Part shown: piece after piece, positions 29,001-29,753 of the stretch
How the letters are laid out: every line of letters begins with the position of its first letter
Position numbering within the stretch: the stretch's first letter is position 1
Source of the DNA: Escherichia coli
GTDB taxonomy: Bacteria > Pseudomonadota > Gammaproteobacteria > Enterobacterales > Enterobacteriaceae
Strand: one strand, 5' to 3'
Length of the DNA: 64,000 bases
Assembly: GCF_003018235.1 (NCBI RefSeq)
Contig: NZ_CP027437.1
Notes under the pieces: model-generated
Databases searched by the model: none
What the model was told of the DNA's origin: nothing
The model's input: the letters and a program-made list of their open reading frames with translations, nothing else
Made by a program: the position numbers and the translations under genes

Positions 29001-29753
29001 CACTGACCCGGTATGTTCACCTGCACTTTGCGTGGGTAACGAGACACTCCAGTGACCGTTGTTGTCTACCTGAGTACTGGCAATAGTATTGCCGTTACTG
29101 TCTTTAATCTGAATAGTCGCCCCCGCCTGCCCGCTGCCGCTAAAGGTTGGCGTGGTATCATCGGTGATGTCATTGGTGGCGAGAATGCCGCGCTGATCGC
29201 CCTGATTATCGGTAACTAAAAATGATGGAGTGGCGTTGCCAGGCTCAGCGGGTGGCGTAGGGTTATTAATCACTTCCGTTTTCGAGTCGCCATCGCCACC
29301 GCTTGCCAGCAGTGCACCAAGCGCGCCACCGCCTACCGCCGCCCCCGCCAGCCATCCCCACGGGAAGGTGCTGGTCTGAGCAACGGTATCAAGAAATGGC
29401 GCAATGCTTTCAATCGCGGTGGTCTGGGCAGTCAGTTCTACGGGGGCTAATCCACCCGCAGCAGTATCGGCAAAGGTGACGTGGGTGAGCTGTTGTCCAT
29501 CGGCAAACACCAGTTCCGATTGTTCAGCGGTATTCGCCGCTTGCAGGAAATAACCGTTGCAGCGGATCTCCGTGCCGTCCTGCATATAGATCAGCAGGTC
29601 ATTTCCTTCACGGACGTAACGCGCAACGGCAGAGGCCTGAGCATGAACCTGCACCACGGAAGGCTCATAAATAACAACCGTGACGTCGCCAGGATTAATC
29701 AGCGTTTGTTTGACGGATGTTTTACGCGAAATAACATCAATAATCAGGCTCAT
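8083..29753 (-). CDS. Giant T1SS-secreted Ig-repeat RTX adhesin (LapA/BapA/SiiE-like), about 7,220 codons; apparent 1-bp frameshift at about 28779-28781 splits it into ORFs 28728..29753 and 8083..28761
   Basis: N-terminal BapA-prefix/retention-module-like domain (MSLIIDVISRK...); dozens of tandem ~95-100-aa Ig-like domains (xxINTxxxDDxINxxE ... LNGxxYTxT ... WSVxVP ... VTDxAGN); C-terminal FG-GAP/VCBS-like D-x-D-x-D-G repeats, RTX nonapeptides (GGNDTLNIGNGGHDTL) and a T1SS C-terminal secretion domain. Confidence 0.9.
8440..8620 (-). repeat. RTX calcium-binding nonapeptide repeats (GGxGxDxxx) near the adhesin C-terminus
   Basis: Reverse complement of 8461-8520 translates DNQLEGRGGNDTLNIGNGGH; further GxGxD motifs adjacent. 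Confidence 0.8.
12450..29300 (-). repeat. Tandem array of Ig-like (BIg-type) domain-coding repeats within the giant adhesin gene, on the order of fifty to sixty units (approximate bounds)
   Basis: Recurring, near-identical ~300-bp coding modules; the many antisense ORFs on the + strand with repetitive translations are a side-effect. Confidence 0.85.

Follow-up and report, generated by a model that had tools for sequence, protein, structure and literature searches.

The TAAG string of the giant Escherichia coli adhesin SiiEA lies within a BapA_N module and probably matches the LapG consensus by chance

The 64,000-nucleotide stretch analyzed here (the window; contig NZ_CP027437.1 of assembly GCF_003018235.1) covers the Escherichia coli chromosome from qmcA to acrA. 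RefSeq annotation of the syntenic stretch gives the order qmcA, ybbJ, a YadA-family autotransporter gene, cueR, an accessory island, ybaT, glsA, and copA, running on to acrA. The island between cueR and ybaT comprises four type I secretion system (T1SS) genes, all on the minus strand, for a TolC-family outer-membrane channel, a giant adhesin, an ABC transporter, and a periplasmic adaptor (Table 1). Positions 29451-29753 encode the first 101 residues of this adhesin, SiiEA, the BapA-related giant adhesin of the island. Our subject is a Thr-Ala-Ala-Gly (TAAG) string near the end of that segment, which an earlier reading made from the sequence alone had placed in an N-terminal retention module of the kind that LapG, a periplasmic protease, cuts in LapA-type adhesins.

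The adhesin N-terminus scores 508.9 bits on the NCBIfam model NF047714 (adhesin_SiiEA, "BapA-related adhesin SiiEA"; cutoff 425), and RefSeq genomes label the gene with the same product name. It is already catalogued as an E. coli accessory adhesin under the RefSeq name siiEA. Of 5,426 complete E. coli genomes, 958 match a 2.9-kb query over the motif region, with 90-99% identity and on the chromosome every time. Older annotation calls the protein "adhesin for cattle intestine colonization", a label taken over from Salmonella SiiE (PMC3256949). We found no experimental study of E. coli SiiEA in the literature searched.

After repair of a one-base frameshift, the adhesin open reading frame (ORF) encodes 7,223 amino acids with Big_13, Big_6, and Ca_tandemer repeats, and it is flanked by the TolC-family, LssB-type, and HlyD-family genes. 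The two pieces of the channel gene match TIGR01844 with 230.6 and 177.5 bits, over model positions 2-248 and 241-412, respectively. The repeats-in-toxin (RTX) pattern of Smith et al., Dx[L/I]x4GxDx[L/I]xGGx3D, has no match in SiiEA, whose RTX-like content consists of degenerate repeats (GSSGDNQLEGRGGNDTLNIGNGGHDTL) and a single GGxGxD; a C-terminal region of the T1SS type is plausible. At 21.67 kb, the repaired gene is longer than all eight RefSeq copies that we sampled (8.1-20.8 kb), and repeat number differs among strains.

Translation of the minus-strand ORF from position 29753 (MSLIIDVISRK...HVTFADTAAGGLAPVEL) places TAAG exactly where the sequence-only reading had put it, at residues 97-100 (plus-strand 29454-29465). 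The BapA-prefix-like character that it had assigned to the N-terminus is likewise confirmed, by NF033677 (residues 5-69, E = 1e-19) and by PF22783 (Table 1), and the string falls within the Pfam BapA_N domain (residues 5-132). A match of this kind is unremarkable in such a protein. SiiEA is 15% Thr, 13% Ala, 11% Val, and 11% Gly, a composition from which 8.1 matches to [TAP]AA[GV] are expected in 7,223 residues, compared with 10 observed; one or more matches would fall within residues 70-150 with a probability of ~0.075-0.09. The frequency of the pattern in SiiEA is not above chance. The N-terminal dialanine signature of LapG substrates, [T/A/P]AA[G/V], is thus present, but at a frequency that composition predicts.

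Table 1. Features of the siiEA island and of the SiiEA N-terminus (positions in the window)
Feature	Positions	Strand	Details
TolC-family outer-membrane channel gene (T1SS)	29862-31218	-	two ORFs, 30295-31218 and 29862-30452
T7 run (A7 on the coding strand), one extra base compared with T6 in other E. coli	30377-30383		alignment
Giant adhesin gene siiEA	8083-29753	-	two ORF pieces in the window
First siiEA ORF piece	28728-29753	-	325 native codons, 16 out-of-frame codons, stop (341 codons)
BapA_N domain, residues 5-132	29358-29741	-	PF22783, E = 2.9e-19; NF033677, 70.1 bits (cutoff 35)
Codons for T97-A98-A99-G100	29454-29465	-	translation; matches [TAP]AA[GV]
Uncharged Gly/Ala-rich hydrophobic segment, residues 132-153	29295-29360	-	WGWLAGAAVGGGALGALLASGG
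Acidic, Pro-rich linker, residues 154-180, up to the first Ig-like extender	29214-29294	-	
C3 run, one base short; frameshift at codon 325 of siiEA	28779-28781		alignment
siiEA remainder: Ig-like extenders, FG-GAP/VCBS-like distal region, degenerate RTX repeats, putative C-terminal secretion region	8083-28761	-	
T1SS ABC transporter gene, LssB/LapB subfamily	5917-8079	-	TIGR03375 (type_I_sec_LssB), 836.8 bits (cutoff 693)
HlyD-family periplasmic adaptor gene of the T1SS	4745-5920	-	TIGR01843, 330 bits (cutoff 209)

We examined conservation of the string among relatives of the SiiEA N-terminus. An exhaustive HMMER search with residues 1-157 against 1.84 billion representative proteins gave 130 relatives at E <= 0.001, most of which align across the full span of residues 1-155; a word-indexed homologue search with residues 1-186 returned E. 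coli and Shigella copies only. In the AFDB50 database there are 489 matches at E <= 0.001, and the listed 50 consist of BapA prefix-like proteins or large repetitive adhesins; among the matches listed, those from Enterobacter, Citrobacter, and Cedecea are among the closest non-Escherichia relatives. We aligned 51 BapA_N N-termini, the query included (alignment A1). The sequence-only reading had named conservation of TAAG in orthologues as one of two points on which its claim would stand or fall, and the string does not show it: the motif occurs at the homologous position in one of the 51 N-termini, namely the query, and anywhere within aligned residues 86-128 in 3 of the 51, which is near the chance rate. 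The nearest non-Escherichia relatives (45-61% identity) read ADAAVG, AGDASG, AADTVG, AGEVAG, and EAVPGM at this site. Among BapA prefix-like adhesins, TAAG at residues 97-100 is limited to the E. coli/Shigella lineage.

The local context of the string also differs from that of established LapG sites. The LapG cut falls between the retention module and the segment that spans the conduit, and an optimal site comprises a targeting helix, a conserved DP motif, and then the Ala-Ala bond within [T/A/P]AAG (PMC13090378). In Smith et al., the elements upstream of TAAG are "Helix 1 and DPxxxLxx" (10.1101/198937). No DPxxxL is present in residues 1-200 of SiiEA. An AlphaFold2 run with the 51-sequence alignment (mean predicted local distance difference test score, pLDDT, of 82, and >90 across most of residues 1-122) predicts a compact, 11-strand, all-beta domain from residue 1 to ~122. 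TAAG is modeled in a loop between strand 89-94 and strands 105-107/109-114, with pLDDT values of 83-97 around the motif; beta strand 89-94 precedes it, and no helix is predicted ahead of it. Because the string lies inside the predicted domain, a cut there would split the domain rather than fall behind it. In this model, TAAG does not occupy the position between a retention domain and a channel-spanning segment.

A positive control for a Lap system was obtained from sequence databases. A consensus-like query for the bacterial transglutaminase-like cysteine proteinase (BTLCP) family matched the LapG chains 4u65_E and 4fgo_A in the PDB, and these real LapG sequences led to natural lapG-lapD loci. 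In one of them, an enterobacterial locus (L009), lapG, lapD, and a giant adhesin gene stand side by side. On NF045674 the lapG product reaches 302 bits, and on NF045673 the lapD product reaches 910 bits, just below the respective curated equivalog cutoffs of 320 and 1,020. The adhesin starts MSNVIGIIKAVNGEV and has the site region ...VVDEVAAVQQAIEEGADPSQVLEATAAGP..., in which a helix, DPxxxLEA, and TAAG follow in that textbook order; the helix-DP site of this adhesin (AVQQAIEEGADPSQVLEATAAG) has no matching counterpart in SiiEA.

The two N-termini also belong to different module families. Whereas the control adhesin scores 112 bits on NF033682 (retention_LapA), the SiiEA N-terminus has no match to that model even at E <= 10, and hhalign gives a probability of 2% for the BapA_N profile against the LapA-type module. 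Judged by these profiles, the SiiEA N-terminus is a BapA_N-type module and not a LapA-type retention module. Of the LapA-like plug fold that had been anticipated for it, the compact beta domain is predicted, but profile similarity to the LapA module is lacking and TAAG is modeled inside the domain. The proposal that TAAG is a LapG-type cleavage site accordingly fails on four counts: conservation, helix-DP context, position in the fold, and module family.

The locus that served as control deserves a remark of its own. Positions 10001-20507 of L009 (AP025685.1), part of a 4.26-Mb record labelled Salmonella enterica Choleraesuis, carry canonical lapG, lapD, and a LapA-type adhesin gene with an DPSQVLEATAAG site. 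Either Lap systems are sporadic in Enterobacterales, or the record is mislabelled. In a second locus, at 10694-13181 of a sequence from Candidatus Erwinia impunctatus (L010), lapD appears to be split into an ORF with LapD_MoxY_N only and a separate EAL ORF, beside an intact lapG; in this reduced genome of 3.46 Mb, the Lap system seems to be in decay.

That the window lacks LapG and LapD, as the sequence-only reading asserted, was confirmed by two approaches. tblastn searches of the six-frame translated window, using as queries LapG, full LapD, the periplasmic part of LapD, and the core of Legionella LapG, gave a best E of 0.31, and RefSeq annotation of the syntenic region in AF39 and 042 lists housekeeping genes and the four T1SS genes, with no lapG or lapD. 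The same reading had allowed for release by unlinked genes, which now appears unlikely. We used two DNA probes in sensitive blastn, lapG-lapD from L009 and lapG plus the start of lapD from the Erwinia genome, and neither had any match in the 5,426 complete E. coli genomes, a result at the DNA level that a very divergent gene would escape.

Reviews and homologue loci were consulted on the same question. The set of E. coli c-di-GMP (cyclic di-GMP) proteins is summarized in PMC5635171. None of the reviews searched says explicitly that LapD and LapG are missing from E. coli. The catalogued E. coli c-di-GMP proteins are not known to include a LapD-type receptor. At four BapA_N homologue loci examined with their flanks (L006, L007, L008, and L012), T1SS genes adjoin the adhesin gene and no PF06035 or PF16448 gene is present. 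Separately, the locus of a SiiEA homologue with 58% identity (L006, CP035738.1) contains at 32733-36041 two EAL-domain genes, one GerE-EAL and one EAL only, 1.2-4.5 kb downstream of its T1SS genes and interspersed with two further genes. They might connect that locus to c-di-GMP in a manner other than that of Lap systems; no such genes are present in the E. coli island.

What the SiiEA N-terminus shares across its family is an ordered series of elements. The prefix domain, with its YxRQGNDLxxxMKDGS, HSELVF, and SIxPL blocks, is followed by a Gly/Ala stretch, a Gly run, and a Pro/acidic linker, and this order is conserved. All 51 homologues have a counterpart of the uncharged Gly/Ala-rich segment at about residues 120-150 (median length 23 residues, 58% Gly+Ala); its 19-residue Kyte-Doolittle mean is >=1.6 in 33 of the 51, and a run of at least three Gly follows in 35. 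AlphaFold2 models residues 123-185 as coil with no secondary structure and with pLDDT <50 at residues 136-150, and the Big_13 and Big_6 domains begin at residues 181-195, leaving ~55-60 residues between the beta domain and the first Ig domain. A profile search with alignment A1 against PDB sequences yielded only low-complexity noise from the Gly/Ala segment, and no study of a role of this segment in retention was found in the literature searched.

These features suggest how the adhesin could be held on the cell. RTX adhesins follow a plan of retention module, flexible linker across the T1SS channel, extenders, ligand-binding region, and beta-roll, with module and linker together spanning 127-196 residues (10.1101/2025.09.30.679566). 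In MpIBP of Marinomonas primoryensis, the Ca2+-independent N-terminal beta domain (RIN, PDB 5IX9) exceeds the TolC pore, and a thin segment lies inside it (PMC5550230). Transporters of the LssB/LapB-type subfamily are associated with adhesins that carry an N-terminal retention module (10.1101/198937). The predicted ~120-residue beta domain of SiiEA and the ~55-60 coil residues behind it would work on the same principle as region I of MpIBP, with its RIN plug and RIM channel-spanning part; as in RIN-type retention, the model shows a compact N-terminal beta domain and an unstructured linker long enough for a TolC-type channel.

SiiEA would accordingly be exported C-terminus first, and its ~120-residue all-beta N-terminal domain (residues 1 to ~122) would fold and be too bulky for the TolC-family channel, acting as a plug. 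The next ~55 residues (123 to ~180), comprising the Gly/Ala segment, a Gly-rich turn, and the Pro/acidic linker, would remain threaded in the channel. The adhesin would then be held on the surface without LapG, LapD, or c-di-GMP-gated proteolysis. We infer this plug-and-linker mechanism, and with it the absence of regulated release, because the beta domain and coil fit the RTX-adhesin plan, the MpIBP plug principle, and the LssB/LapB-type transporter. Of the retention module postulated by the sequence-only reading, the module itself stands, as a type found in giant T1SS adhesins, and the dialanine as LapG site does not. That reading had also raised the alternative of permanent tethering or a different release mechanism, and the evidence favors this LapG-independent option.

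Comparison with known systems places SiiEA most closely with Salmonella BapA and the BapA prefix-like adhesins (PF22783, NF033677) of Enterobacterales, Halomonas, and Acinetobacter. They belong to the same N-terminal domain family and share giant Ig-like repeats, a dedicated channel/ABC/adaptor operon, and the Gly/Ala segment with poly-Gly. The three T1SS genes are common to L006-L008, with the E. coli gene order at L006 and the channel gene after the adhesin gene at L007 and L008. SiiEA differs from these relatives in having its own NCBIfam "exception" model (NF047714) and an N-terminus only 45-61% identical to the nearest ones outside Escherichia. Salmonella SiiE (SPI-4), the source of the name siiEA, is likewise a giant T1SS adhesin with Ig repeats from an enteric bacterium, but SiiEA is classed as BapA-related by NCBI, and its island contains no genes beyond the three T1SS components. 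SPI-4 (Salmonella pathogenicity island 4) additionally encodes SiiA and SiiB.

With Pseudomonas fluorescens LapA and other LapG substrates (MapA, BrtA, RtxA, FrhA, and DvhA), SiiEA has in common the giant T1SS adhesin form, a folded module followed by a Gly-rich linker, an LssB/LapB-type transporter, and a [T/A/P]AA[G/V] string ~100 residues from the N-terminus. Unlike them, it has a module without sequence or profile similarity to theirs, without a targeting helix or DP motif, and with a nonconserved string predicted to lie inside the domain; searches for lapG and lapD were negative for the window and, at the DNA level, for E. coli genomes.

Taken together, these data make it probable that TAAG in SiiEA is a lineage-specific loop sequence that matches the LapG consensus by chance, within a BapA_N module whose retention would be independent of LapG. 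Gene identity, domain family, nonconservation of the motif, the lack of LapG and LapD in the window, and the predicted fold are directly supported. Several observations weigh against this conclusion. The spacing of the motif (97-100) resembles that of LapA-type sites (~107-120), and the transporter is of the LapB/LssB type, as in Lap systems. The species-wide test for lapG and lapD was at the DNA level only, and blastn would miss a highly divergent gene. Finally, the E. coli and Shigella copies examined all have TAAG or AAAG at the site, although this retention, while compatible with function, carries no weight because the copies are at least 94% identical.

The best-surviving alternative concerns the state of this copy: the locus may be a decaying pseudogene in this genome, its N-terminal module having no current function, a view that we consider nearly as probable as its opposite. 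The sequence-only reading had treated the adhesin as one intact ORF, but it is split by a 1-nt deletion at 28779-28781, and the channel gene is split as well. The deletion site is C4 in AF39 and GCGCC in 042 and GF60, and one added C restores the 7,223-residue siiEA ORF without an internal stop; the channel gene is intact, at 1,356 nt, in AF39, GF60, and 042. As written, the locus encodes a 341-residue N-terminal fragment without a secretion signal together with a split channel protein, and the two frameshifts mean that this copy cannot make a secretable adhesin. Decay is seen elsewhere too. In 042 and AR_0013, two of eight genomes sampled, siiEA is annotated as a pseudogene, and truncated or frameshifted fragments are common in protein databases, including from Shigella dysenteriae.

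Other features of the two indels argue against decay. Both are homopolymeric, and neither allele is found in any of the 5,426 complete genomes: the C3 allele has no exact match, and all 295 genomes that match at the T7 site differ from it. This pattern is also expected of sequencing or assembly errors, to which giant repetitive adhesin genes are prone (10.1101/2025.09.30.679566). Once the single base is repaired, the remaining 21.6 kb of siiEA is stop-free. The contrast between two indels in the 26-kb island and zero in ~38 kb of flanking genes is not significant (P ~0.17). Alleles shared with other genomes would have shown the indels to be genuine; being unshared, they may be private inactivating mutations or, equally, sequencing errors.

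A different alternative is that the Gly/Ala segment (residues 132-153) is a membrane-embedded anchor or channel-occluding element, so that retention would not depend on a simple bulky plug. Each of the 51 homologues has, at the same place, a stretch without polar residues (15-42 residues long, median 23), most often with a hydropathy in the range noted above, and the character of this stretch is better conserved than the surrounding linker. Weak, nonsignificant profile matches (E 3.7-5.7) to ATP synthase c-subunit helices point the same way. The E. coli segment itself, however, has a Kyte-Doolittle value of just 1.40 and 64% Gly+Ala, with a central GGG, and is modeled as low-confidence coil; LapA-type modules too have Gly-rich linkers that are thought to be located in the channel (10.1101/198937). 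On balance, such an element is improbable in SiiEA. We know of no route by which a segment of a T1SS substrate could be inserted into a membrane, and this also counts against a membrane anchor. For BapA_N adhesins as a group, a broader proposal would combine LapG-independent retention with the Gly/Ala segment and poly-Gly as an anchor, either lipid-embedded or jammed in the channel, and with release that is not c-di-GMP-gated; we offer it tentatively and consider it unlikely as a whole.

The adhesin might instead be released by another periplasmic protease of E. coli, with TAAG or its loop as the target. Salmonella BapA has been described both as cell-associated and as released. The loop block at residues 91-100 has a pLDDT of 83, somewhat below its neighbors. 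The loop sequence varies across the family, a cut there would in the model leave two further strands (105-114) attached to the adhesin, and no linked protease gene is present in E. coli or at the four homologue loci with flanks, which together make this explanation very doubtful. That TAAG is a genuine LapG site after all, with release controlled by lapG and lapD elsewhere in the genome, is extremely improbable: the consensus match at a LapA-like distance, the LssB/LapB-type transporter, and the existence of LapG and LapD in some Enterobacterales (L009 and L010) are outweighed by the nonconservation of the motif across the family, the missing helix-DP context, the predicted position inside the fold, the failure to match the LapA-type module, the lapG and lapD DNA probes without a match in 5,426 complete E. 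coli genomes, and the LapA-type rather than BapA_N module of the L009 adhesin that does stand beside lapG-lapD.

Two observations concern the surroundings of the island. cueR and copA were considered as functional partners of the island and rejected, both being core genes that flank the insertion point. Between ybbJ and cueR, the YadA-family trimeric autotransporter gene (1827-3629, plus strand) encodes 600 residues here, compared with 338 in AF39, and a long internal block of its product (DRDNGQDTAIQDAQHAANWAS to SDIADQQ) occurs twice.

Overall, the TAAG finding is an ordinary one: a real string in a known, annotated adhesin that probably matches the LapG consensus by chance. The point of most interest is the conserved hydrophobic Gly/Ala segment of BapA_N modules and its possible part in holding adhesins on the cell, in a family that spans adhesins of Enterobacter, Citrobacter, Cronobacter, Pectobacterium, and Acinetobacter. 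These results highlight that a [T/A/P]AA[G/V] string ~100 residues from the start of an adhesin rich in Ala and Gly does not indicate Lap-type regulation, and that a Lap-type call also needs the helix-DP context, conservation in orthologues, and a LapA-type module.

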